A DNA stretch of 59,227 nt, taken from an uncultured Eubacteriales bacterium (lineage in GTDB: Bacteria; Acidobacteriota; Aminicenantia; Aminicenantales; Aminicenantaceae). The translations under genes were made by a program, and so were the position numbers. The stretch covers positions 1 through 59,227 of the forward strand of contig CAYZDV010000002.1 of assembly GCA_964477275.1 (NCBI GenBank), given 5' to 3'. Shown here one piece after another: positions 5,405-24,271 of the stretch; position 1 is the first letter of the stretch; each line of letters begins with the position of its first letter. Under the pieces are notes generated by a model that saw only the letters and a program-made list of their open reading frames with translations, had not been told where the DNA came from and did not search any database.

Positions 5405-5428
5405 TAAAAAAGGGGCCTGTCCCCTTTT
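5405..5428 (+). terminator. Intrinsic (bidirectional) terminator hairpin AAAAAAGGGGCCTGTCCCCTTTTT
   Basis: GGGG/CCCC stem with a 5-nt loop, flanked by an A-run and a T-run, 14 nt after the galU stop. The left arm is tandemly duplicated at 5390-5403. It could also stop the convergent tRNA-Phe transcript. Confidence 0.6.
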
Positions 5429-5482
5429 TCCTTTTTCGTGCCAGGTTTGACTAATACAAACGAAATGAATAATGTTACATTT

Positions 5483-5634: not shown

Positions 5635-5707
5635 TGGCGAGGGACGGAATCGAACCGCCGACGCAGGGATTTTCAGTCCCTCGCTCTACCGACTGAGCTA
5701 CCTCGCC
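5635..5707 (-). tRNA. tRNA-Phe (anticodon GAA)
   Basis: The reverse complement reads GGCGAGG-TA-GCTC-AGTCGGTA-GAGC-G-AGGGA-CTGAAAA-TCCCT-GCGTC-GGCGG-TTCGATT-CCGTC-CCTCGCC-A. This is a complete 73-nt cloverleaf with GAA at positions 34-36. CCA is not encoded. Confidence 0.93.
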
Positions 5708-5849: not shown

Positions 5850-5939
5850 TCTCCCTTCTCACAAAAAAGAAATGACTTTGCTCAAATTGAAATAAGGCCA
5901 TAGCTTATGATATTATTTTCAAGCTGGAGGAAAAGCCTG

Positions 5940-6161
5940 ATGCGAGAAGAAGAGATTAAGGCACTTCTTTTGAAGAAAAACAGGGAATTCAGAGAAGCCA
6001 ACCGGCTGCATCAGCAGTATGAGAAGAAACTGGAAAAACTGAAGAGCAAGAATTTCCTGACCGAAGCGGAGAAGATGGAGGAGAAGGAGCTGAAAAAAAA
6101 GAAACTCGCCCTGAAAGACAGGATGTATTACATGATGACAGAGTACAATAAATCCCTTTGA
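5940..6161 (+). CDS. Small coiled-coil protein, DUF465/YdcH-like
   Basis: About 73 aa starting at MREEEIKALLLKKNREF.... The charged helical pattern ends in KKKKLALKDRMYYMM as in YdcH-type proteins. GGAGG lies upstream of ATG 5940, and the longer 5907 start has no SD. Confidence 0.55.
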   Translation: MREEEIKALLLKKNREFREANRLHQQYEKKLEKLKSKNFLTEAEKMEEKELKKKKLALKDRMYYMMTEYNKSL

Positions 6162-6179: not shown

Positions 6180-7205
6180 ATGAAAGAGAAAAAAAGACTC
6201 CGGATTGCTTTTGTCGGCACCGAATCGCTGCGGGCGAAAGAGCTGCGGAGCGTCCTGGACAGGAAGCACTTCCCGCTCGAGAGCGTTGATTTCTACGATC
6301 CGAGCGTTGAGGAGGAATACAGCAAGCTGACCTCGTTCCGGGACGAGCCCAGGGTCATCCATCGTCCCGATAAAAAATCTCTGGAGGGAGTGGACCTCGT
6401 CTTCCTGATCGCGGATCAGAAAGTGAATCGGGAACTTGCCGCCCTGGCCCCCAGACAGGGATTCCTGGCCATCGACCTCAGCGAAACCTTCAACCTGGAT
6501 GAGGAGGTCCCGGTCGTTGTGTCCGGTGTCAATGACGGGATTCTGAGCGGGAAAAGACCCGTTCTGATCGCCAACCCTCATCCGGCGACCATTGTCCTCT
6601 CTCACATGTTCCACATAGTCAGGGCCGCCTTCGGCCTGAAAAAAGCCGTTTCCATGGCCCTTCAGCCCGTCTCTGCCTACGAGAAGTCCGGCATCGAGGA
6701 GCTGGCCAGCCAGAGCTATTCCCTGCTCAGCAGCTCTTTGTTGACCAAAAAAGTGTTCAGGGAGCAGATCGCCTTCAACCTGCTTTCCCAGACTGAGAAA
6801 ACCGATGCAGATGGGTTCACGGCTGTTGAGAAGCAGATTTCCTCAGAAATCTGCCGGGTTCTCGACCGTCAGGATTTTCCATTTTCCCTTTCCGTCATCC
6901 AGGCCCCGGTTTTTTTCGCCTATTCCTTCCTGACCTATCTCGAGCTTGAGAAAAAGACCGATGTCCAGGGCCTGAAAGACCTTTTTAGGGTTCATCCCCT
7001 GTTCAAAGTTTCCCTTTCCGGCCGGTCGAGCCCGGTCTCGGTGGCCAGGAAGGAGGAGATTTTCCTCGGCCAGGTCAAGAAGATAGACGCCATTCCCAAC
7101 AGCTTCTGGGTCTGGATGGTGGCCGACAATCTGACCCGCGGCTCAGCCCTGAACGCCTTTGAAATTGCAGAACGGATTTTTTTAAGCCCCCAGCGTGAAG
7201 AATGA
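6180..7205 (+). CDS. Aspartate-semialdehyde dehydrogenase homologue lacking catalytic and cofactor motifs (probable pseudoenzyme)
   Basis: 341 aa, collinear with Asd blocks (LIANP..., QIAFNLL, WMVADNLTRGSALNAFEIAE). However, GxxGxxG is GTESLRA, NPNC is NPHP, the VRxP Arg is Q (IQAP), and GHS is AYS. Confidence 0.75.
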   Translation: MKEKKRLRIAFVGTESLRAKELRSVLDRKHFPLESVDFYDPSVEEEYSKLTSFRDEPRVIHRPDKKSLEGVDLVFLIADQKVNRELAALAPRQGFLAIDLSETFNLDEEVPVVVSGVNDGILSGKRPVLIANPHPATIVLSHMFHIVRAAFGLKKAVSMALQPVSAYEKSGIEELASQSYSLLSSSLLTKKVFREQIAFNLLSQTEKTDADGFTAVEKQISSEICRVLDRQDFPFSLSVIQAPVFFAYSFLTYLELEKKTDVQGLKDLFRVHPLFKVSLSGRSSPVSVARKEEIFLGQVKKIDAIPNSFWVWMVADNLTRGSALNAFEIAERIFLSPQREE

Positions 7206-9007
7206 GACAGATAGTCCAGCTTCTCAAGCTCACCCTCAGCGAGAAAAAAAGGCTCGCTCTTTCTCTGGGTTTCAGCTTGTTCGCGGCGTTTTTCACCTTC
7301 CTTTTCGTCGATCTCGTTCATCCGATCATCGACCAGATGTTTCTCGGAAAAGACCCGCAGGCGACAGCCGGAAAGCCCGGGTTCCTGACCTCTGTTTTTC
7401 AGAAACTCCAGGCTGCCGAAGGGCACTTCCTGTGGCTCATCCCCCTGTTGCTGGTGATCGTCATTCTCGGAAAGGGCCTGTTCACTTTTCTCTCCACGTT
7501 TTTCATGAAGACCATCGGCCACCGGGTGGTGAAAAAGCTGCGCGACGACCTCTTCCGGCACGTCATCCACGAGTCTTCCGATTTCTTTGACCACCGGTCG
7601 ACAGGCGAGCTGATGTCCCGCCTGACCAATGACGTGGACAAAATCCAGCAGGCGGTCTCGGGAAGTATGGGCGATTTCATCATCTCTTTGTTTATGATTG
7701 TCGCCCTGCTCGGCAAGATTGTTATCACCGACTGGAAACTGGCCCTTCTTTCTTTCCTCATCGCTCCCCTGGCCGTTATCCCCCTGGTGCTCTTCAGCCT
7801 TCAGCAGAAGAAAAGGGGGATGCAGGGCCAGAGGAAGATGGCCCACATCTACACCCTTCTCCACGAGACAATCACCGGACAAAAGATCGTCAAGGCCTTT
7901 ACCATGGAAATGTTCGAGATCAAAAAATTTCTGCAGGCCACTTTTGACTATTTCAAGACGAGCCTCAAGCTGGCTCTGACCGCAAGCCTGTCTTCCCCCT
8001 TCATGGAATTCGTCGGCGGCATTCTCGGCGCCTTCATTCTGGTGGTGGGAACGACCCGGATCGTGCGCGGGGAGCTGAGCCCGGGCGCTTTCAGCTCCTT
8101 TCTCATGGCCATCTTCATGATGTATACGCCGATCAACCGCCTCAGCCGGGCCAACAACGTCATTCATCAGGCAGTAGCCAGCCACGAGAGAATCCAGGAA
8201 ATCCTCCGCCGGCAGCCCCAGATTGTCGACCATCCCCGTGCTTGCCATCTGCCCAGGGTCAGGGGCCTGGTGAAGTTTGAGTACGTCTCCTTCAGCTATA
8301 ACGAGATGATGCCTGTTCTCCACGGCCTGAATTTTGAAGTCCAGCCGGCCGAGAAAGTGGCCCTGGTCGGCCTGAGCGGGGCCGGAAAGACGACCGTTGT
8401 CAACCTTCTCCTCCGTTTTTACGAGCCGACCTCGGGCCGGATCACCATCGACGGCATGGATATCCGGGAGGTCACTCTTTCCTCCCTTCGCTCCCAGATC
8501 GGTTTGGTCACCCAGGAGCTCATCCTCTTCAACGATACCGTGCGCAACAACATCGCCTATGGCCTGGAGGATGTCTCCCTGGAGGAGGTCATCCGGGCGG
8601 CCAGGGCAGCCAAAGCCCATCAGTTCATCGAAGAGCTTCCTCAGGGCTATGATTCGAACATCGGAGAGAAAGGAACCCTTCTCTCCAGCGGCCAGAGGCA
8701 GAGGCTGGCCATTGCCAGAGCCCTGCTCAAGGACCCGCCGATTCTCGTCCTCGACGAAGCCACTTCGGCTCTGGATTCGGAGTCAGAACGCCTGATCCAG
8801 CGTGCCCTGGATAACCTCATGAAAAACAGGACCACCTTCGCCATCGCCCACCGCCTCTCCACGGTGAGGAAGGCGGACAAGATTTTTGTCATCGACAGGG
8901 GGCGGATTGTCGAAAGCGGCACCCACCAGAAACTGATGAGGAAAAACGGAATATACAAGAAGCTCTACGACCTGCAGTTTCTGGAAGAAGCGGGGAGTGA
9001 GCCGTGA
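7202..9007 (+). CDS. ABC exporter, fused permease/ATPase, MsbA/lipid A flippase-like
   Basis: 601 aa with a six-helix TMD followed by an NBD. The NBD carries Walker A GLSGAGKTT, signature LSSGQRQRLAIARA and Walker B ILVLDEATSALD. The start overlaps the upstream stop (ATGA). Confidence 0.85.
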   Translation: MRQIVQLLKLTLSEKKRLALSLGFSLFAAFFTFLFVDLVHPIIDQMFLGKDPQATAGKPGFLTSVFQKLQAAEGHFLWLIPLLLVIVILGKGLFTFLSTFFMKTIGHRVVKKLRDDLFRHVIHESSDFFDHRSTGELMSRLTNDVDKIQQAVSGSMGDFIISLFMIVALLGKIVITDWKLALLSFLIAPLAVIPLVLFSLQQKKRGMQGQRKMAHIYTLLHETITGQKIVKAFTMEMFEIKKFLQATFDYFKTSLKLALTASLSSPFMEFVGGILGAFILVVGTTRIVRGELSPGAFSSFLMAIFMMYTPINRLSRANNVIHQAVASHERIQEILRRQPQIVDHPRACHLPRVRGLVKFEYVSFSYNEMMPVLHGLNFEVQPAEKVALVGLSGAGKTTVVNLLLRFYEPTSGRITIDGMDIREVTLSSLRSQIGLVTQELILFNDTVRNNIAYGLEDVSLEEVIRAARAAKAHQFIEELPQGYDSNIGEKGTLLSSGQRQRLAIARALLKDPPILVLDEATSALDSESERLIQRALDNLMKNRTTFAIAHRLSTVRKADKIFVIDRGRIVESGTHQKLMRKNGIYKKLYDLQFLEEAGSEP

Positions 9008-9882
9008 TCCAGAGCATGACCGGTTTCGCCGAGAAAAGGTTTGACTTCAGGACTCTCTCCGCCAAGTTCAGCATCCGCAGCCTCAACCACCGCTTTCTGG
9101 ATTGGAATTACAGGGGAGCCCAGGTCGGTCGGCTGGAAAACCGGCTGCGGGCCATCCTCCAGAAAAAAGTCCACAGGGGAAGGATCGAGGTTTTCCTTGA
9201 GCTGGATTATCCGGATGCGCGGCGCTGGGAGCTGTGCATCAACCAGGACGTGCTGGCCAAGATTGTTCGCGCCCTGCAGAGGCTCTCCTCGCAGATGAAG
9301 ACGGGCTTCAGCCTGACAGCGGAAAGCCTGTTCAGCATCCCTCATCTCGTTGAGCTGAGGAGGAAAGAGTTAAACGCCGGGGAGACGGCATTCCTGGAAA
9401 AAAGCTTTGAGAAAACCCTGGATGAAATGATCAGGATGAGAAAGAGGGAAGGAACCGGGGTCGAGAAAGAGCTGCGTAAATCTCTGGGCAGGATAAAGAG
9501 GGTGATGAAGAGGCTGGAGAAGATCGCCATCAGACAGCCCCAGCTTGTCCGGGAGAAATTGATAAACCGATTGAAGGACTTCAGCCAGGAGATTCCTCTT
9601 TCAGAGGAGAAGCTGGCCGAGGAAGCCGCCTTCTTCGCTCAAAGATCCGATATCACCGAAGAGATGGCCAGGCTGAAATCCCATCTGGATTATGCTCTGG
9701 AGCTTCTTTCGCCGGAGAAAGAGGAGCCGGTGGGCAGGAAGCTGGATTTTGTCGCCCAGGAAATGTTCAGGGAGGCGAATACCGTCAATTCCAAGGCTCA
9801 AAATATTGAGCTCATCAAGGACATCCTGACTGTCAAAGCCGAGGTGGAGAGCATTCGCCAGCAGGTGCAGAACATTGAGTAG
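9004..9882 (+). CDS. yicC: YicC-family stress-induced protein
   Basis: 292 aa with the typical N-terminus MIQSMTGFA, a C-terminal block REANTVNSKAQ and an end ...ESIRQQVQNIE. The GTG start overlaps the msbA-like stop. The yicC-gmk synteny is classic. Confidence 0.85.
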   Translation: MIQSMTGFAEKRFDFRTLSAKFSIRSLNHRFLDWNYRGAQVGRLENRLRAILQKKVHRGRIEVFLELDYPDARRWELCINQDVLAKIVRALQRLSSQMKTGFSLTAESLFSIPHLVELRRKELNAGETAFLEKSFEKTLDEMIRMRKREGTGVEKELRKSLGRIKRVMKRLEKIAIRQPQLVREKLINRLKDFSQEIPLSEEKLAEEAAFFAQRSDITEEMARLKSHLDYALELLSPEKEEPVGRKLDFVAQEMFREANTVNSKAQNIELIKDILTVKAEVESIRQQVQNIE

Positions 9883-9917: not shown

Positions 9918-10520
9918 ATGCTATTCGTTATCACCGGACCGTCAGGCAGCGGAAAGACGACTCTCGTCCAGCGGGTGTTGAAAAAAGTAGAAAACCTCCA
10001 CTTCTCCGTATCCCACACCACGCGGAAGAAGCGGAATTCGGAGAAGGAAGGCAGGGATTACCACTTTGTTTCCGAGCCTGAGTTCAAGCAGATGATCAGG
10101 GAAGAGAAGCTGGTGGAATGGACGCGCTTCCACGGGAACTACTACGGTACCTCCCGGAAAGAGGTTGAGCAGAAAGGAGGCAGGGGCGACCTTCTGCTGG
10201 ACATCGATGTCCGCGGCGCTCAGCAGATCAAATCCAGGATCAAGAAGGCGGTCTTCATCTTCATTCTCCCTCCCCTCTTTGAGGAGCTGAAGAGAAGGCT
10301 CAAGCTGAGGGAGGAAAGTCCGGAGATGATCGCCGAGAGGCTGGAGCTGGCCAGAAAGGACATCCGGGCCTATCCCCAGTTTGATTACATCATCATCAAC
10401 GATGACCTGGACAGGGCTGTCCGCGACCTGGAGGCCATCATCCGCAGCGCAGGGTGCAGGCTGGAGGCCCGAAAGAAGGAGATCATTCCCATCCTCCAGA
10501 GTTTTTCCCGGGAGAAATGA
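9918..10520 (+). CDS. gmk: Guanylate kinase
   Basis: 200 aa with P-loop GPSGSGKTT and the motifs SHTTRKKR and NYYGT. Confidence 0.93.
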   Translation: MLFVITGPSGSGKTTLVQRVLKKVENLHFSVSHTTRKKRNSEKEGRDYHFVSEPEFKQMIREEKLVEWTRFHGNYYGTSRKEVEQKGGRGDLLLDIDVRGAQQIKSRIKKAVFIFILPPLFEELKRRLKLREESPEMIAERLELARKDIRAYPQFDYIIINDDLDRAVRDLEAIIRSAGCRLEARKKEIIPILQSFSREK

Positions 10521-10523
10521 GAG

Positions 10524-11738
10524 GTGAAAATGGCGTTGATTGCACTGGGCGTCAGTTCGTCGGTGAGCATCTACAAGGCCTGCGAGGTCGTCAGGGAGCT
10601 TCAGGAGAGGAAATGGGAAGTCCAGGTCATCATGACCAGGAACGCCACCCGGCTCGTTTCTCCTCTCCTCTTCAGCGCCCTCTGCGGCCGGAAGGCCATC
10701 GTCGACCCTTTTGAAGAGGAATATTCGGAGAAAATCGCCCACGTGGCGCTGGCTGAAGAGGCCTCCCTGCTTTTGGTGGCTCCGGCCACGGCCAACGTCA
10801 TCGGGAAATTTGCGGCGGGTGTCGCCGATGACTTTCTTTCCACCTTTTTTCTGGCCGTGGAGAGTCCGGTGCTCATCGCACCGGCCATGAACCAGGCTAT
10901 GTACCTCCATCATCAGACCCAGCAGAACATCCGCAAGCTGAAGAGCCTCGGCGTCCGGTTCGTCGAGCCGGAAAAAGGATACCTGGCCTGCGGAGATACC
11001 GGCTGGGGAAGGCTGGCTTCGCCGGCGAGGATTGTCGAGGAGGCGGTCCGGCTGATCAAGAAGAGCCAGAGCCTGAAAGGGAAGACGCTTCTCATTACGG
11101 CTGGCCCGACCCGCGAACACTTGGACCCGGTCCGTTTCCTGACCAACCGCTCCTCCGGAAAGATGGGCTACTGCCTTGCCGAGGAAGCGCTCCGGCGCGG
11201 GGCAGAGGTTGTGCTCGTCTCAGGCCCGACCCAGCTCTTCCCGCCTCAAAAGGCCGTTTTCAGGCCGGTGGAGACCGCAGCCGAGATGAAGGATGAAGTC
11301 CTGAAACACTTCCCCGGAGCCGATATCGTCATCATGGCTGCCGCTGTTTCGGATTTCCGCTTTGCCGATATTTCGGCCCGGAAAATAAGCAAAGAAAGCC
11401 TCGGAAAGACAGTGGCCGTCGCGGCCACAGAGGATATTCTCCACACGTTAGGCCAGAGAAAAAGGTCAAAGTTTCTCGTCGGCTTTGCCGCCGAGACCGA
11501 GGACATTGTCCCCAGGGCTCTTCAGAAATTGAAGAAGAAAAACCTCGACCTCATCGTCGCCAACAACGTTCTGGACAGAGAAATCGGGTTTGAGTCGGAT
11601 TCAAACCGGGTTCATCTGGTCTTCCCGGACGGGAAAGCCATCGAGACAGAGACGATGAGCAAAACCGAGATCAGCCAGGTCATCCTGGACAGGATAGAGG
11701 AAGCCGTTGGAAAGAAGCCGGGAAAAACTTCTCCATAA
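10524..11738 (+). CDS. coaBC: Bifunctional phosphopantothenoylcysteine decarboxylase / phosphopantothenate-cysteine ligase
   Basis: 404 aa with an N-terminal flavoprotein domain (VAPATANVIGKFAAGVADD) and a C-terminal CoaB domain (ITAGPTREHLDPVRFLTNRSSGKMG). ATG 10530 is the more likely start. Confidence 0.9.
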   Translation: MKMALIALGVSSSVSIYKACEVVRELQERKWEVQVIMTRNATRLVSPLLFSALCGRKAIVDPFEEEYSEKIAHVALAEEASLLLVAPATANVIGKFAAGVADDFLSTFFLAVESPVLIAPAMNQAMYLHHQTQQNIRKLKSLGVRFVEPEKGYLACGDTGWGRLASPARIVEEAVRLIKKSQSLKGKTLLITAGPTREHLDPVRFLTNRSSGKMGYCLAEEALRRGAEVVLVSGPTQLFPPQKAVFRPVETAAEMKDEVLKHFPGADIVIMAAAVSDFRFADISARKISKESLGKTVAVAATEDILHTLGQRKRSKFLVGFAAETEDIVPRALQKLKKKNLDLIVANNVLDREIGFESDSNRVHLVFPDGKAIETETMSKTEISQVILDRIEEAVGKKPGKTSP

Positions 11739-15131: not shown

Positions 15132-17363
15132 CTATGATTGGATTATTCGGGGAGTGATGAAGATGAGCAGCTCCCTGTTCTGCCGCGTTCGGGCGAAATT
15201 CTTGAACAGGCTTCCCAGAATGGGGATTTGATGGAGAAGGGGGACTCTTTCGCGTGTGATGGAATCCTCTGTCCTGTAGATTCCTCCGATGACCGCTGTT
15301 CCTCCATCGGGAACCATGACCGTGGTATCCGCGCTCTGGGTGGTGATGGGCGGGATGCCGTTGACCAGGTTGGCGAAGTCGGCGGCGTTGTTCCGGATTT
15401 CAATGTTCATGATGATTGTCCCCTCGGCCGTGATCTGAGGGGTGACCCTGAGCTCGAGGGCCGCGTTCACGAACCGGGTGGAGGTCGTGAAGTTGGCCAC
15501 CGTCTGGACCGGAATCTGCCGGCCCTGGACGATCTCGGCCTGTTTGTTGTTCTGAGTGGTGATCGAGGGGCAGGAGATGATGCGGCCCTGGCCGGAAGTC
15601 TCCAGAGCGGAAATGGCCATATCGATCCGGATCGTATCCATGACGTTTCCGAAGGAAAGGCCGAGGGCGGTGTTGAAGGCCGGGGCAGGAAGGTTGATGG
15701 CATAACCGCCCAGCGGCCCGCCGATTCCTTTGGTCACGATTCCCTGAGGAATCAGCGCGCCGTCCGCCAAGATCTTGTTCGGGAACTGGAGCGAAGTCTG
15801 GTTGCCGTAGAAGGGGTCCATGATGCCCCGGAATCCCCATTGAATACCCAGGTTGCGCACAAAGTTGGAGGTGGCTTCCACTATCCGGGCTTCGATGGAG
15901 ACCTGGGGCGTCGGCGTGTCGAAGACCGCGATCAGCTGCTCGATGAGATTGATTCTGTCTTTCACATCGGAGATGATGAGGGTGTTGGTCCGCTCGTCGG
16001 TGATCATTTCTCCCCTGGTCGAGAGTTTGTCAACGAGAAGCCGCTGGACATCGGCCGCTCTGGAGTAGGAAAGCTCAAAGGTCCGGTGAATCTGGGGGCC
16101 GACAAGCTCCAGGCTTTCCCTCAGTTTCCGCTGCTCCTCTTCCTCCCGGGTCAGAGCTCCGATGGAAGCGATGCGGAGCACGTTGCCCTCGATGGTTCGG
16201 CCCATCCTGTTCTGTTTGAGGATGATGTCGAGAGCCTGGTCCCAGGGGACATATCTCAGGTCGCAGGTCACGGTTCCCCTGACATCGGGGTCAAAGACGA
16301 CATTCAGGTCGGCAAAATCGGCAAGATAAAGGATGACATCCCGGAGGTCTGCGTCCTTGAAGCGGAGGCTGATGATTTCTCCCGTGTATCTTTCCTCAAC
16401 CCTGGCGATGGTTCTCGGCTCGAACCTGACTTCCCGGGGGGCTTCCTCGACAGGGGGAAGCGGCCGCACGGGTTCGACGGGAACTGGCTCCACCACCGCA
16501 GGCGGTGCGATTTCGGGGACGACTTCCGGCACAGGAACAGCGATTTCCGGGACGGGCCGGACCACGGCTTCCTTGGTGAAGGAGACATCGACTTCGGCCG
16601 TGTCTCTCTGCAGGTTATAGAAGCGCGGCTCCTGAAGGTCAAAGACCAGTCGGGCGATGGTATAAGGGCTTGTCCTCTGAAATTGCCCTGTCCTCACCCT
16701 GTAGATGCCCAGCCTCTGGACGGGGTAGACATAGGTCGGGTCGGGGTAGAGAGTATCGAAGAAATCCACCACCAGACGGAGGGGGCTTTCGAGGGCGAAG
16801 ACCTGAGAGACGGCATCATCGCTCAATTTGGCCGTGACGCGAATTCTCTCTTCGCTCTCCGAGATGGCAACCCCGCGGAAGTAGATATTCTTCTTGGGAA
16901 TCTGCCTCAGTTTCGTTTCTGTCTCTGAGGTCATGATGTATCCGTCCAGGCTTCTCTGGATTCTGTTCAGCTCAATCACGGTCTGGCCCTGGGAATAGTA
17001 AAATCGGTAGGGGACTTTCTCCCTGAGGCTGATGAGGAGACGGCCGGTTGTGGCACCGGTTTTTTCAATCTTGATGTCCTGGACAAATAGCGTTTCCTGA
17101 AGGTCGACCTCTGCTTCGACCCCGGTGTTGAAGCGCTCGAGGAGGATGACCATGGTCGCCGGATGATCCAGCGAGTAGAATGTATCGGAAATGACGATGG
17201 GGCCGCTGCTGGTCAGGATGACGTAAGTGTTGAGTTCGCCGGATTGCACGGTGACCTTGGTGATGGTGATAAGGGGTTGGGCACCACCAGGATATGCGCA
17301 CAGGAGTGCAAGCGAAAAAACCAAAGGAACAATCAGGATAAATTTTTTCCTTTTCATCTTCAT
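15132..17363 (-). CDS. pilQ: Type IV pilus secretin PilQ with N-terminal AMIN-type domains
   Basis: 743 aa with a signal peptide, two AMIN-like repeats and a Pro-rich linker (PVPEIAVPVPEVVPEIAPPAVVEPVPVEPVRPLPP). The C-terminal secretin domain reads ...VPLLHQIPILGSLFKN...RELLIFITPRII. Confidence 0.9.
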   Translation of the reverse strand: MKMKRKKFILIVPLVFSLALLCAYPGGAQPLITITKVTVQSGELNTYVILTSSGPIVISDTFYSLDHPATMVILLERFNTGVEAEVDLQETLFVQDIKIEKTGATTGRLLISLREKVPYRFYYSQGQTVIELNRIQRSLDGYIMTSETETKLRQIPKKNIYFRGVAISESEERIRVTAKLSDDAVSQVFALESPLRLVVDFFDTLYPDPTYVYPVQRLGIYRVRTGQFQRTSPYTIARLVFDLQEPRFYNLQRDTAEVDVSFTKEAVVRPVPEIAVPVPEVVPEIAPPAVVEPVPVEPVRPLPPVEEAPREVRFEPRTIARVEERYTGEIISLRFKDADLRDVILYLADFADLNVVFDPDVRGTVTCDLRYVPWDQALDIILKQNRMGRTIEGNVLRIASIGALTREEEEQRKLRESLELVGPQIHRTFELSYSRAADVQRLLVDKLSTRGEMITDERTNTLIISDVKDRINLIEQLIAVFDTPTPQVSIEARIVEATSNFVRNLGIQWGFRGIMDPFYGNQTSLQFPNKILADGALIPQGIVTKGIGGPLGGYAINLPAPAFNTALGLSFGNVMDTIRIDMAISALETSGQGRIISCPSITTQNNKQAEIVQGRQIPVQTVANFTTSTRFVNAALELRVTPQITAEGTIIMNIEIRNNAADFANLVNGIPPITTQSADTTVMVPDGGTAVIGGIYRTEDSITRERVPLLHQIPILGSLFKNFARTRQNRELLIFITPRIIQS

Positions 17364-19037: not shown

Positions 19038-20117
19038 TCAATCTTCCATTTTTCGAGTTGCCAGACCCGTGGCCACTCCGAAGAGCGAGGCCATTTCCTG
19101 AAAGTAGATAGGGTCTAGTTTTTTTTCATTATAATAGACGCTGCGGAAAGGGTTGAAAACCTCAATCTCCGTGCCGAACTTCTGCTGGAAGAACTTGGGC
19201 AGATCCTTCAGCTTGGCCAGCCCTCCGCTGAGGAAGATCCTTTCTATCTTCCGGCTTCCTTCCTCTCCCGCCTCGTAGAAAGTGAAGGTTTTTTCGATTT
19301 CCTCCAGAAGGTTTTCAATGTTGGTGTTGAGGACGGTTTCCACCTGTTCGGCGGGGATATCTTTGGCGGGGATTCCTTTCAGCACCTTTTCGGCATCATC
19401 GATGCTGAGGCCCAGCTCTTTGCGGATGTTCTCCGTGAAGAACGAGCCGCCGATCGAAAGGTCTCTGTAGAGCTGGGATTTTTCCTTCTGGGTGATGATG
19501 ATGTTGGTGGTGTTGGCGCCGAGATTGATGAGGGCGACGGTTTTGTCCCTGAAGTCGTCAGGATAGTTGATTTCCAACGCGTTTTGAAGAGCGAAGGCGT
19601 CGACCTCGATGGCCACCAGGTTTTTACGAGCTTGATTGACGACATTGCTGTAATTGCTCACCTTGTCTTTCTTTGCGGCGACGAGGAGAATATCCACGTT
19701 CTTCTCTTCCGAGTAAAGAGAGGGTTTCAGGATGGCATAGTCCACAGCCGTTTCTTCGTAAGGATAGGGAATGTTGTGCCTGGCTTCCCAGATGATGGAT
19801 TCGGCCAGCTCTTCGGTTTCCATGGAAGGGAGGGATATTTTTTTGATGATCACCGAGCTTCCCGAAAGAGAAATGACCACATTCTTATTGGTAATGTGGT
19901 TTCCGTCGAAGACCATCTTGATGGTTTCGTAGACTGCCGTGGGGTCCATGATGGTTCCTTCGACGATGGCGTCATGGGGCAGGAATTCGAGACCGATCTT
20001 GGTCACTTCGTAGAATTCGCCTCCGCCTTTTTTTCGTGTTTTGAATTCGACCGCTTTGATCGAGTAGGAACCGATGTCCAGCCCGACGATTGACTTGACT
20101 TTCCCCAGACCAAACAT
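19038..20117 (-). CDS. pilM: PilM, actin-like ATPase-fold pilus assembly protein
   Basis: 359 aa with N-terminus ...IVGLDIGSYSIKAVE and an FtsA/actin-like fold pattern (INLGANTTNIII, FLSGGLAKL). Confidence 0.9.
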   Translation of the reverse strand: MFGLGKVKSIVGLDIGSYSIKAVEFKTRKKGGGEFYEVTKIGLEFLPHDAIVEGTIMDPTAVYETIKMVFDGNHITNKNVVISLSGSSVIIKKISLPSMETEELAESIIWEARHNIPYPYEETAVDYAILKPSLYSEEKNVDILLVAAKKDKVSNYSNVVNQARKNLVAIEVDAFALQNALEINYPDDFRDKTVALINLGANTTNIIITQKEKSQLYRDLSIGGSFFTENIRKELGLSIDDAEKVLKGIPAKDIPAEQVETVLNTNIENLLEEIEKTFTFYEAGEEGSRKIERIFLSGGLAKLKDLPKFFQQKFGTEIEVFNPFRSVYYNEKKLDPIYFQEMASLFGVATGLATRKMED

Positions 20118-21169: not shown

Positions 21170-21904
21170 ATGAAATTGCGTTTCCGCTTGAGGCGTGTCA
21201 TTGGAGGGGTGGTCATCTTGACCCTCGGCCTCGCTTTGTTCTCCCGGGAGGAAGACGAGTATGCCCGGAAAAGGGAGGCCATGGTTCGCGGGCAGCTTGC
21301 CGCAAGGGACATCACCGACTCCAGAGTCCTCGAGGCCATGCGCCAGGTCCCCCGGCACCTTTTTGTCAGCCCCAGCCTGCGGAGCCAGGCTTATATCGAC
21401 TCTCCCCTTCCCATCGATGAAGGCCAGACGATTTCCCAGCCTTATATCGTCGCTCTGATGACCCAGCACCTGAGTGTGAAGCCAGGAGAGAAGGTTCTGG
21501 AGATTGGCACCGGCTCCGGGTACCAGGCGGCAGTGTTCACCTTTCTCACCGATGAGGTGTATTCGGTGGAGATCAGAGAAAAGCTGGCCAGAAAGGCCGA
21601 AGAGACTTTGACCAGCCTGGGTTACGACCGGGTGCGTGTCAAATGGGGGGATGGCTATTTCGGATGGGAGGAGCATGCTCCCTTTGATGCCATCATGGTC
21701 ACCTGCGCCGCCAATCACGTCCCTCCCCCTCTTATCCAGCAGCTCAAGGAGGGCGGGCGGATGATTATCCCTCTCGGCAACCCTCTTCTTTTTCAGACTC
21801 TGACCCTCATTACCAAAAAACGGGGGAAACCCTACGTGAAGCACGTCTTAGATGTGCGTTTTGTCCCCATGGTGGGCGAAATCCAGAAAAAGAAGGGCCA
21901 GTAG
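21170..21904 (+). CDS. pcm: Protein-L-isoaspartate O-methyltransferase with N-terminal membrane anchor/signal
   Basis: 244 aa with the SAM motif VLEIGTGSGYQAA, the block QTISQPYIVA and the end ...VRFVPMVG. The N-terminal hydrophobic segment is VIGGVVILTLGLALF. Confidence 0.9.
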   Translation: MKLRFRLRRVIGGVVILTLGLALFSREEDEYARKREAMVRGQLAARDITDSRVLEAMRQVPRHLFVSPSLRSQAYIDSPLPIDEGQTISQPYIVALMTQHLSVKPGEKVLEIGTGSGYQAAVFTFLTDEVYSVEIREKLARKAEETLTSLGYDRVRVKWGDGYFGWEEHAPFDAIMVTCAANHVPPPLIQQLKEGGRMIIPLGNPLLFQTLTLITKKRGKPYVKHVLDVRFVPMVGEIQKKKGQ

Positions 21905-24271
21905 ATAGCCTCCGCAGGCCAGCAGTAACACAAGGCTGTAGCCTCCCCAGAAGGCGATCATCAGCGCGGAAACCGAGTTCACCACAGAGGAAAAAGCGTT
22001 CGTCGCCCAGGCCCAGGGAATCAGCCTTTTGCTCTTCTCTTCCAGAAGCCGGATTCCTGTCGGGAAGGGAAATCCCATCACGAAGCCCAGGGGAAACGTC
22101 ACCAGAAAGGTGAGAACCATCTTGAGAGGAAGGCTGCGGGTGATGAGGGTTTCAGAGAAATGGGGGAAGATGAGGAGATGAAGGCCGATGAGGGCCGCAC
22201 AGAGAAAAAGACTCCACCTCAAGTTCCTTCTCCTCTTCTGACCCAGGATGGCCTTGGAGAAGAAGCTTCCCAGCCCCGAGGAGAAGAGAAGGGAGAAGAT
22301 GACGAGGGATGTGGAATAGAGGGGATGGCCGAGAAAGAGAATGAATTTCTGGATGAGGGTGATCTCGACAAAGATGAAGGCCATGCCGATCAGGCCAAAG
22401 TAGAGAAAGGTCTTTGAGGCCAGGCCCTTTACCACCCGAAGTCGGCCCCGGAAAAGGAGAAGAGGCAGAAGAACCAAGACAAAAGCGATGATGATGGACT
22501 GAAGGAAGAGAAGCGGGACCAGGAACTCGCCCTGAAGAAAAGGCAGCCATTTCTGGCCGAGTGTCCGGTGGGTAGCCTTCAGTCTGTTGAGCTTGAAGAA
22601 GTTGAAGAAAAAGGGGCTGTCGTCCGTGGCCGGCCTGATCTGGAAAAGGTACCCGCGGTAAAGCTCTTTTCTCTGCGGCTCGGAGAGGAGCCTCAGGACG
22701 AGTTCATAATAGAGAGGATTGTCGAAGACGTTGTAGATGTTGGCTTCTTCGGGCCGGATTCCCGGATAATAGACAAGGTCAAACAGGCAGCGCTCGCTAA
22801 ACTGGTGAAGTTTCTGGATGTCGGATGCCAGAAAGGGGCTTTTTTTGATGAAAAAGTGAATGGTTCCCCAGCTTCTGATGGCGGCTATTCGCAGGGAGGG
22901 GTCAAGCCCGCTTTTTTTTAGGGCTTCGACCCAGGTGGCCGCTGCTCTCAGCTCCTGGCGGGGCGGAGGAAGGAGGTAGAGGCTCATGCTGATCAATCCA
23001 TCAGGCGATAAGAGGTTCAGCAGATGGAGGAAGGATTCGACCGTGAAGAGATAATTTTCGCCCAGGCCGTAGATTCCTGTTCCCGAAGCACCGAAGACGT
23101 CGGTGAGGGAAAAGACGATGAGGTCGTAAGAACCCTCTCCCTCTATGACGACGGCCCGGCTGTGGCCGGAGACGGCCTCAATTCTTTCCTTCAGATAGAG
23201 ATTTCCGGAGGCTGCGGCCAGTTCATCACGCATTAGCTTCACGATCAGCGGGTTTCCTTCGAGGGCTTTGATGCGAGTGGCGCCGAAGTTCAATGCGGCC
23301 AGGACATCCAGACCGCCTTTTGGCTGGATGATGAGGGTCCGCGGCTGTTTGACAAAGGAGTAGGCCAGAGAGGAAGGAAGAGAGGCGAGAAACTCCAGGG
23401 ACGATTCCCCGATATTTTCGAAATGGGTCACCGCCGAGAGATCGCCGCCGTCAATGGACAGACCGGTCTGCGGAGGGAGGTCTTTCTGGTAGAGGAGGCT
23501 TAATCCCGGTGCGTATCTCAAGGCCGGCGATTCGAGAATGTCGATCCGGGAAATGGCGTTCCAGCTTGTGGCCAGATGCCTGGCCTGGGGATACTTCATG
23601 GCGAGAGGAAGGGCCTTGACCGGTGAAATTCTGAAGCTCAGCCAGGCAGGTGCCCAGATAAAAAGCCCGATTTCGAGAGCCATGAAAGAGACAAGGACAA
23701 GCCGAAAAAGGAGAGATCTTTTGAGGCTGAAAAGAAGAGAGGCAAGCAGAGCCAGAAACGAAATCATCAGGATGACTCCCCGGTCTCCTCTGGGAAGGAA
23801 GACGACCAGAGCGGCCAGAGTGCCGGCACCGGCACCGACAAGATCCGAGAAGTAAATCGTGTTCACGGCCTGCGGCGTGCTGGAAATGGCGAAGGAGATG
23901 GTGAGGCCGGCAAAAAAGAAAGGAATGCTGAGAATGAGATAATACAGAAAGATGTATCCGATCTGGCGCTTATCCCAGGCCAGCCAGGCAAAGTCGAAGG
24001 GAATGGCGTTACAGAGCAAAAAACAAAGGAGGATGGTCAGGGAATAGAGAAAAGAGCTCGAGGACAGGAATGTCTCCCGATCGATGAAACCCAGAGATTT
24101 GAAAAGGCTCAGACAGGAGCCGCTGGCGCCGTAGCCCATGAAGGCCATGCTGACCACAAGGAAGGCAAAATGATAATGCTGGGAGATCGAGAAATAGCGG
24201 GTGAGGGATATCTCCAGGCAGAGGGTGGCCGCGGAGATGAGGAAGATTCCAGCCAGAATGCGTCTGTTCAT
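21848..24271 (-). CDS. Polytopic membrane protein with central spermidine-synthase-like (class I MTase fold) domain
   Basis: 807 aa with the N-terminal motif CLEISLTRYFS typical of membrane-fused spermidine-synthase-like proteins. About 8 TM helices precede a soluble Rossmann-like core (IIQPKGGLDVLAALNFGATRIKALEGNP...YDLIVFSLTD), followed by a second block of about 6 TM helices. Confidence 0.7.
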   Translation of the reverse strand: MNRRILAGIFLISAATLCLEISLTRYFSISQHYHFAFLVVSMAFMGYGASGSCLSLFKSLGFIDRETFLSSSSFLYSLTILLCFLLCNAIPFDFAWLAWDKRQIGYIFLYYLILSIPFFFAGLTISFAISSTPQAVNTIYFSDLVGAGAGTLAALVVFLPRGDRGVILMISFLALLASLLFSLKRSLLFRLVLVSFMALEIGLFIWAPAWLSFRISPVKALPLAMKYPQARHLATSWNAISRIDILESPALRYAPGLSLLYQKDLPPQTGLSIDGGDLSAVTHFENIGESSLEFLASLPSSLAYSFVKQPRTLIIQPKGGLDVLAALNFGATRIKALEGNPLIVKLMRDELAAASGNLYLKERIEAVSGHSRAVVIEGEGSYDLIVFSLTDVFGASGTGIYGLGENYLFTVESFLHLLNLLSPDGLISMSLYLLPPPRQELRAAATWVEALKKSGLDPSLRIAAIRSWGTIHFFIKKSPFLASDIQKLHQFSERCLFDLVYYPGIRPEEANIYNVFDNPLYYELVLRLLSEPQRKELYRGYLFQIRPATDDSPFFFNFFKLNRLKATHRTLGQKWLPFLQGEFLVPLLFLQSIIIAFVLVLLPLLLFRGRLRVVKGLASKTFLYFGLIGMAFIFVEITLIQKFILFLGHPLYSTSLVIFSLLFSSGLGSFFSKAILGQKRRRNLRWSLFLCAALIGLHLLIFPHFSETLITRSLPLKMVLTFLVTFPLGFVMGFPFPTGIRLLEEKSKRLIPWAWATNAFSSVVNSVSALMIAFWGGYSLVLLLACGGYLLALLFLDFAHHGDKTHI

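Follow-up and report, generated by a model that had tools for sequence, protein, structure and literature searches.

The B-type aspartate-semialdehyde dehydrogenases (Asd; EC 1.2.1.11), whose solved structures include those of Vibrio cholerae Asd2 (2qz9 and 2r00), Streptococcus pneumoniae (2gz1) and Thermus thermophilus (2yv3), have disabled paralogues of the USG-1 type that have been known for decades and still lack an assigned function. In Escherichia coli the gene for such a paralogue, usg, belongs to a pdxB-usg-truA-dedA operon (PMC6358828). Here we describe another protein with this fold, encoded on a stretch of 59,227 nucleotides ("the window": contig CAYZDV010000002.1 of assembly GCA_964477275.1, positions 1 to 59,227) from an uncultured bacterium of the class Aminicenantia, phylum Acidobacteriota; the host assembly comprises 2.14 Mb in 221 contigs and is 92.6% complete. 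The gene (6180..7205, plus strand, ATG start) encodes 341 amino acids with an Asd fold that lacks the catalytic, substrate-binding and cofactor-binding residues of Asd. We provisionally call the protein AsdL, for the Acidobacteriota Cys-less Asd-like family. AsdL is not the Asd of the cell, and we think, with a probability of about 0.5, that it serves as a ligand-binding partner in a module with a small protein of the DUF465 family, a module that would have begun in a phosphatidylethanolamine operon.

According to its structural model, AsdL keeps an intact two-domain Asd fold. The profile comparison with the N- and C-terminal Asd domains recommended in the initial annotation gave scores above the cut-offs of 26 bits for both families (PF01118, Semialdhyde_dh, 45.8 bits; PF02774, Semialdhyde_dhC, 59.1 bits), and phmmer aligned AsdL to PDB chains with E-values from 1e-31 to 1e-19. 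The structure prediction and superposition, proposed at the same time, agree with this: the AlphaFold2 model, built from a 47-sequence alignment, has a pLDDT of 93 and a pTM of 0.92, Foldseek returns TM scores of 0.90 to 2r00/2qz9 and of 0.89 to 2hjs (a Pseudomonas aeruginosa "USG-1 protein homolog"), and the model superposes on V. cholerae Asd2 with a root-mean-square deviation of 2.3 A over 339 columns. The match to B-type Asd extends over the full length, with equal lengths and no insertions, at 23% identity, and D99, P133, S165, the QIAFN motif, W312 and D316-N-L are shared. The motifs quoted in the initial annotation are indeed all there, whether the altered ones (G13-A19, N132-P135, I240-P243, A247-S249) or the structural ones (LIANP, QIAFN, ADNLTRGSA..EIAE), and the dimer architecture is probably retained as well. 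None of the NCBIfam Asd equivalog models accepts the protein (NF011456, 165 bits for a cut-off of 223; TIGR01296, 155 for 324.2; TIGR00978, 30 for 301.2).

The residues that make an Asd were placed with the phmmer alignments to solved chains and with a MAFFT alignment including 25 canonical Asd_B sequences. The nucleophilic Cys and the acid/base His, both invariant (1.00) in these 25 sequences, have Pro135 and Tyr248 in their columns, and no Cys/His pair appears at the catalytic positions of a proper alignment, a result that would have been fatal to the initial annotation had it gone the other way. N-P-H-P (codons 132-135; 6573..6584, plus strand) sits where N-P-N-C, the oxyanion Asn with the nucleophile, belongs, His134 standing for the Asn. 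In I-Q-A-P-V-F-F-A-Y-S (codons 240-249; 6897..6926, plus strand), Gln241 (nucleotides 6900-6902) takes the place of the substrate Arg and is followed by Tyr248 (6921-6923). The phosphate Arg has given way to Asn105, and the ExxK pair to Val216 (for Glu) and Gln219 (for Lys). As ligands of substrate and phosphate we take the residues numbered R103, E243, K246, R270 and Q163 in Haemophilus influenzae Asd, a numbering with which the PDB mutant entries R103K/L, E243D and H277N agree; four of the five are lost in AsdL, Gln162 being the only one retained. The cofactor site has fared no better. G-T-E-S-L-R-A (codons 13-19; 6216..6236, plus strand) sits where the GxxGxxG dinucleotide loop belongs, and its middle Gly16, invariant (1.00) in canonical Asd, is Ser in the window protein and Ser or Thr in the family; the column of the 2'-phosphate Ser, S43 (0.92 in canonical sequences), holds Val, and SAYE stands where canonical Asd has SGAG. 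Compared with B-type Asd, AsdL can therefore be described by C135P, H248Y, R241Q, R105N, E216V, K219Q and N134H together with the loss of GxxGxxG and SGAG, and the complete set of replaced canonical invariants is G16, R105, N134, C135, G166, E216, K219, R241 and H248. The single Cys of the protein, C224, falls in a column without a majority residue among orthologues. With no thiol nucleophile, no acid/base His, its ligands lost and its glycine-rich loop broken, AsdL is, as judged from these alignments, unable to perform Asd chemistry, and the earlier description of an Asd homologue with a dead catalytic Cys, His, Arg and cofactor loop holds residue by residue, with Pro, Tyr, Gln and Ser at the respective positions.

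These substitutions are fixed. In a set of 120 orthologues, 55-70% identical to the window protein, NPHP is found in 119, Gln241 in 118 and Tyr248-Ser249 in all, and the consensus of the glycine loop is G-T-D-S-L-R-G; this is the orthologue comparison that the initial annotation had called for as far as the substitutions are concerned. The window protein itself departs from the family at three conserved positions, having Glu15 for Asp, Ala19 for Gly and Phe246 for His. Median identities to the window among loci of the same order are 52% for AsdL, 51% for Gmk, 47% for YicC, 59% for CoaBC and 63% for MsbA. Because its conservation equals that of the neighbours Gmk and YicC, asdL is best read as a gene under purifying selection of housekeeping level, maintained and not decaying, which is what had been argued at first from the intact reading frame and now rests on the 120 orthologues, the phylum-wide occurrence and the comparison with housekeeping neighbours. 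One orthologue (G130:C28:71181-72126) gives two overlapping matches (residues 27-235 and 211-337), which may reflect a frameshift or a misassembly.

The most conserved positions of AsdL line the former active-site cleft, namely the P-H-P loop, Q-P-x-S, QIAFN and the QAPVF(H) loop. Some of the cleft-motif positions are shared with canonical Asd (S165, Q178, A198, F199, N200 and F245), and the conserved positions specific to the family are D40, P135, P163, G171, H246 and W310. D40, at the end of strand beta2, is present in 82% of the family, against Ala in canonical Asd; in NAD-binding Rossmann folds the residue at this position is typically the one in contact with the adenosine ribose. In the phylum-wide set His134 occurs in 69% of sequences and His246 in 92%, both being gains specific to the family, and position 248 varies between Tyr and His.

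Loss of Asd chemistry is common in this fold. Among 1.84 billion cluster representatives, 87 matched at E<=1e-30, and of 136 full-length proteins among the best 150 representatives 57 have the Cys/Arg/His triad; of the 79 non-canonical ones, 29 have a P-H-x loop, 4 carry a displaced Cys and 46 are Cys-less in some other way. A maximum-likelihood tree puts 77 AsdL rows, including the window protein and all 43 loci from Acidobacteriota genomes, and 70 others made up of canonical Asd_B, USG-like and scattered degenerate forms on opposite sides of a branch that has an SH-aLRT support of 100. The AsdL side carries the signature xPHPxx, QPxSE/A and QAPVFH, which the window protein matches except for Phe in place of His246. 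The other metagenomic Cys-less Asd_B-like proteins share the loss of Asd chemistry, but they mostly nest among canonical Asd_B and have other motifs, whereas AsdL has its own branch and its own gene context. Cys-less Asd paralogues as such are known; on this tree AsdL, spread across Acidobacteriota, appears as a branch of its own among them.

The comparison with Usg deserves some care, since both are Asd paralogues without known function and 2hjs is the best sequence match to AsdL in the PDB (E-value 1.2e-31, 27% identity). Like AsdL, 2hjs has IQAPVFF instead of VRVPVF and has lost the His (GDS); unlike in AsdL, its glycine loop (GATGSVG) is intact and its SSPCAV includes a Cys. The two Usg models of NCBIfam score AsdL below their cut-offs (NF005957, PRK08040, 116.6 for 273 bits; NF004224, PRK05671, 159.9 for 284 bits), and P0166, the 2hjs-like representative in the tree (300 bits to 2qz9, 244 to 2hjs), lies across the supported branch from AsdL, together with the canonical sequences. 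The gene contexts differ too, AsdL going with DUF465, psd, pssA and msbA, and Usg with pdxB and truA. A literature search found no description of an AsdL-like protein and nothing on the function of AsdL or DUF465, so that the initial remark that no role had been described for an inactive Asd fold beside a lipid exporter still stands. The databases treat the orthologues unevenly: many are "aspartate-semialdehyde dehydrogenase" at JGI, and NCBI labels them "Asd/ArgC dimerization domain-containing protein" or "hypothetical protein".

The gene order around asdL was compared in 43 AsdL loci from species genomes, 4 loci of a family without AsdL (f4) and 5 metagenome contigs. Unlike B-type Asd genes, asdL has no linkage to lysC, dap or hom. 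Instead, the order DUF465-psd-pssA-asdL, in which the identities of pssA and psd are above the NCBIfam cut-offs, is found at 12 of the 15 phylum-level loci and on all five metagenome contigs that are of sufficient length to show it; its genes frequently overlap, stop to start, by 4 nucleotides, its flanks are unrelated, and AsdL is 23-36% identical among the distant Acidobacteriota families that carry it. DUF465 is upstream of asdL in 39 of the 43 loci and is the sole neighbour adjacent to it throughout the phylum; within the class it is a single-copy gene in 63 of 71 genomes. The basal families of Aminicenantia have DUF465-psd-pssA-asdL-msbA-yicC-gmk-coaBC. In the order to which the host belongs, psd-pssA is gone from the array, leaving DUF465-asdL-msbA-yicC, and family f42 has DUF465-asdL-yicC.

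In the window the TGA stop of asdL (7203-7205) overlaps the ATG (7202-7204) of the gene for an MsbA-like ABC exporter (7202..9007, plus strand, 601 amino acids; best NCBIfam match TIGR02203, 538 bits for a cut-off of 602) in the sequence ATGA. The initial annotation had taken this overlap as a sign of co-expression. The overlap is real, but the partnership is not general: the link to msbA is lineage-specific and found within the class Aminicenantia only, f42 keeps asdL without msbA at that place, and the test of whether the msbA linkage is conserved turned out against it, the older and wider neighbours being DUF465, psd and pssA. Among the 24 msbA-linked loci the junction is a 4-nucleotide overlap in 10, and otherwise a gap of at most 12 nucleotides or an overlap of 1-17. 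The only literature lead on DUF465 that we found is its mild induction in a phosphatidylcholine-deficient Sinorhizobium meliloti (PMC8343143).

AsdL outlives each of its lipid-related neighbours. pssA and psd were found jointly in 16 of the 31 genomes of the host's order and were not found in the other 15, and none turned up in f1 (the host's own family), f44 or f45; AsdL is nevertheless present in 13 of the 15 genomes without them, including the single-contig genomes G132 and G136. In the window no psd-pssA lies between DUF465 and asdL, and neither gene was found in the host genome, where tblastn with Psd and PssA gave no match and where no PssA is among the four CDP-alcohol transferases, each being PgsA-like, ClsA-like, PIP-synthase-like or unassigned. 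An unassigned one, a CDP-alcohol phosphatidyltransferase of 248 amino acids in the locus G000:C13:1953-3685, adjoins a radical SAM/SPASM protein with a weak match (40 bits, far under the cut-off) to the tetraether lipid synthase Tes.

The same holds for the exporter. At five f42 loci msbA is absent from its place beside asdL. Two f42 genomes, G123 and G062, were searched throughout: both retain DUF465-asdL yet gave no match to lpxC, and in G123 the search for MsbA-like genes at E<=1e-100 also came back empty. This shows that AsdL does not depend on MsbA. In the host genome the MsbA-like gene coupled to asdL is the sole match at E<=1e-100 and lpxC is present (270 bits); since the two occur together in the host and are both missing from G123, the pattern lends support to the view that the MsbA-like neighbour, whose TIGR02203 score is under the cut-off, may be a true lipid A flippase. 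The lack of an lpxC match in G123 and G062 also indicates that part of the host's order may have lost lipid A synthesis.

How, then, might the module work? Beyond the established fold, residue losses, conservation, gene orders and phyletic patterns, we infer that AsdL binds a ligand, works with DUF465 and plays a part in the lipids of the envelope. The former active-site cleft would bind a ligand, possibly an adenine nucleotide, and would not reduce an acyl phosphate; we favour ligand binding because the most conserved positions line the old cleft and D40 is fixed. AsdL would then be a sensor or adaptor without redox function, acting in concert with the DUF465 protein, whose gene lies directly upstream. 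Their module would have arisen inside the phosphatidylethanolamine operon, as DUF465-psd-pssA-asdL, and would be independent of that operon in the lineage of the window, where DUF465, asdL and msbA may be co-transcribed from a promoter ahead of DUF465 and where the translational coupling of asdL to msbA would reflect operon packing and not an obligate partnership. A more specific version, in which DUF465 and AsdL form a self-standing Acidobacteriota module that senses a small molecule (an adenine nucleotide or a lipid precursor) and tunes head-group synthesis or export by PssA, Psd or MsbA, is one that we offer tentatively, at perhaps half the confidence of the general proposal. We also considered that AsdL might have kept the amino-acid pocket for the phosphatidylserine head group, phosphoserine mimicking aspartyl phosphate, and rejected this, E216, R241, R105 and K219 all being replaced.

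Several observations weigh against our proposal. Nucleotide binding is uncertain, given that the middle Gly of the glycine-rich loop and SGAG are gone. The window protein has Phe246 and Ala19, where the family has mostly His and Gly, and the function of those residues is thus not strictly required in this protein. Family f4, with AsdL in none of its 25 genomes and DUF465 as a single-copy gene in 18 of them, keeps an array DUF465-pssA-msbA-yicC; hence DUF465 can do without AsdL, and so can some of the relatives. Moreover, the Aminicenantia array also contains yicC, gmk and coaBC, and its gene order may be partly inherited synteny and not functional linkage. A complex prediction of AsdL with the DUF465 protein (residues 12-84) gave a score of 0.00, controls not having been run, and speaks neither for nor against binding.

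The main rival to a ligand-binding role is that the remodelled cleft, with His134, a His or aromatic residue at 246, Tyr or His at 248, Gln162, Ser165 and Glu217, catalyses a new, non-thioester reaction on a phospholipid head group or a nucleotide-linked substrate, possibly with a His-bound metal. That the highest conservation is in the former active-site loops and not elsewhere, that His134 and His246 were gained specifically in the family, and that in most of the phylum asdL is tightly coupled to two lipid enzymes, with 4-nucleotide overlaps with pssA, would all fit such an enzyme. However, His246 has become Phe or Tyr in 24 of the 120 close orthologues, and position 248 alternates between Tyr and His, changes that essential catalytic or metal ligands seldom tolerate; asdL persists where pssA and psd were not found; and a search for longer, fused forms of AsdL that could hint at a substrate found none, which is weak evidence. 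We regard a new enzyme as a doubtful explanation that deserves to be taken seriously. A little less probable, and in our opinion rather unlikely, is that the gene order is merely historical, AsdL having some function in the cytoplasm that has nothing to do with lipids, and the genes around it being the remains of an old, eroding array. The fact that AsdL outlasts the loss or relocation of psd-pssA, of msbA with lpxC, and of asd with lysC (see below) speaks for this idea, as does the presence of yicC, gmk and coaBC in the same array; yet inertia alone would hardly be expected to explain why DUF465-psd-pssA-asdL recurs with overlapping codons in distant families and on contigs whose flanks are not shared.

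Two further explanations keep AsdL in amino-acid biosynthesis, and both were rejected on the phyletic pattern. The true Asd of the class is of the archaeal type, asd_EA (TIGR00978; 384-435 bits in G027 and G058), and its gene adjoins lysC on the chromosome. Among 71 class genomes, 35 have both asd_EA and lysC, 35 have neither and one has lysC only (asd in 35, aspartokinase in 36), the genomes without the pair including the near-complete G074 (100% complete, 9 contigs) and G123 (3 contigs), in which dapB is missing too. lysC follows asd_EA in its distribution, and not AsdL: among genomes with asd, 14 out of 35 have AsdL, and among those without it, 30 out of 36; elsewhere in the phylum AsdL usually accompanies a canonical asd (61 genomes tallied, one of them, G024, unpublished). 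Because asd and lysC are co-distributed and AsdL occurs in both groups of genomes, AsdL, on this genomic pattern, neither replaces nor partners a live Asd and is not the Asd of the cell. As to the host, the initial annotation had asked for confirmation of a canonical asd elsewhere in the genome and had held that the absence of any other asd from a lysine/threonine/methionine-prototrophic genome would imply that this copy is active. None was found in the 92.6%-complete assembly, which has no match to TIGR01296 or TIGR00978 and no second match to PF02774 (a second, weak TIGR01296 match on contig C19 is a GAPDH); activity is not implied, however, for lysC and dapB were not found either.

It could still be argued that AsdL is the real Asd of this organism, filling the hole in the pathway by some unorthodox chemistry, since the host has hom (contig C4), thrB and a dapA-scoring gene (243 bits, above the cut-off; both on contig C45) and no canonical asd that we could find. 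C45 stops about 300 nucleotides past thrB, so that an assembly gap may account for the missing asd and a small residual doubt stays. We consider an active Asd very improbable: AsdL has other residues in place of the nucleophile, of the acid/base His and of the ligands of substrate and phosphate; aspartokinase and dapB were not found, so that the substrate would be missing as well; and at least 14 genomes of the class, along with many other Acidobacteriota, possess both AsdL and a canonical asd. Even harder to credit is that AsdL is a dead partner that activates a live Asd, in the manner of the AdoMetDC prozyme of trypanosomes, a dead paralogue which, as described in PMC6221367, pairs with the live enzyme and activates it. 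Asd enzymes are obligate dimers and AsdL retains the dimerisation domain PF02774; but 30 of 36 class genomes without a canonical asd have AsdL, and the live Asd of the class is of the distant archaeal type, whereas AsdL derives from the B type. Apart from the question of AsdL, about half of the sampled Aminicenantia genomes lack asd and lysC (and dapB where tested) and yet keep homoserine dehydrogenase.

The remaining features of the locus can be described briefly. The DUF465-family gene (5940..6161, plus strand) encodes a small coiled-coil protein of 73 amino acids counted from a conserved Met, the start at 5940 being judged from 32 aligned orthologues (the mechanical start of the open reading frame is 5907). 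The protein scores 24.1 bits against PF04325, slightly below the cut-off of 25, and F28, H35, K63, K66, L67, K70 and D71 are invariant in the alignment of the 32; 18 nucleotides separate the gene from asdL. On its 5' side a consensus scan found a promoter-like site (5887..5916, plus strand; TTGAAA, an 18-nucleotide spacer and TATTAT, TG-extended), which is a pattern match only. Further upstream, in the 515-nucleotide gap between galU and DUF465, there is a tRNA gene on the minus strand (5635-5707; Rfam match, 71 bits), which sets the DUF465-asdL array apart from the genes upstream, and a terminator-like hairpin of galU (5407-5429) precedes both the tRNA and the promoter-like site. Downstream of the MsbA-like gene the co-directional array goes on with yicC (9004-9882), gmk (9918-10520) and coaBC (10524-11738), all on the plus strand, followed in the same direction by a gene for a family-4 uracil-DNA glycosylase; the tightly packed housekeeping tail yicC-gmk-coaBC is kept downstream throughout Aminicenantia. 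Elsewhere in the window an open reading frame for 807 amino acids (21848-24271, minus strand) has no Pfam match at E<=1e-8; it is flanked by a phosphoglucomutase gene and a type IV pilus cluster (secretin, 15132-17363; pilM, 19038-20117).

What is new here is that AsdL outlives the pair PssA and Psd as well as the pair MsbA and LpxC, that asd and lysC are co-distributed, that f4 has the array without asdL, and that conservation could be measured relative to neighbouring genes. One practical consequence concerns annotation: the Asd name that JGI gives to AsdL would falsely fill a real lysine, threonine and methionine gap in metabolic reconstructions of Aminicenantia, a class in which no more than about half of the sampled genomes have asd and lysC. 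Acidobacteriota are abundant in soil and sediment and have unusual lipids. In the AsdL branch they hold a disabled Asd paralogue that is single-copy, phylum-wide, conserved like essential enzymes and located in a phosphatidylethanolamine operon, and AsdL with DUF465 offers a testable entry to two orphan families and to the way in which these bacteria manage their envelope lipids. If the more specific version of our proposal is correct, DUF465-AsdL would be a new type of regulator for bacterial envelope lipid homeostasis, derived from an enzyme of an amino-acid pathway.

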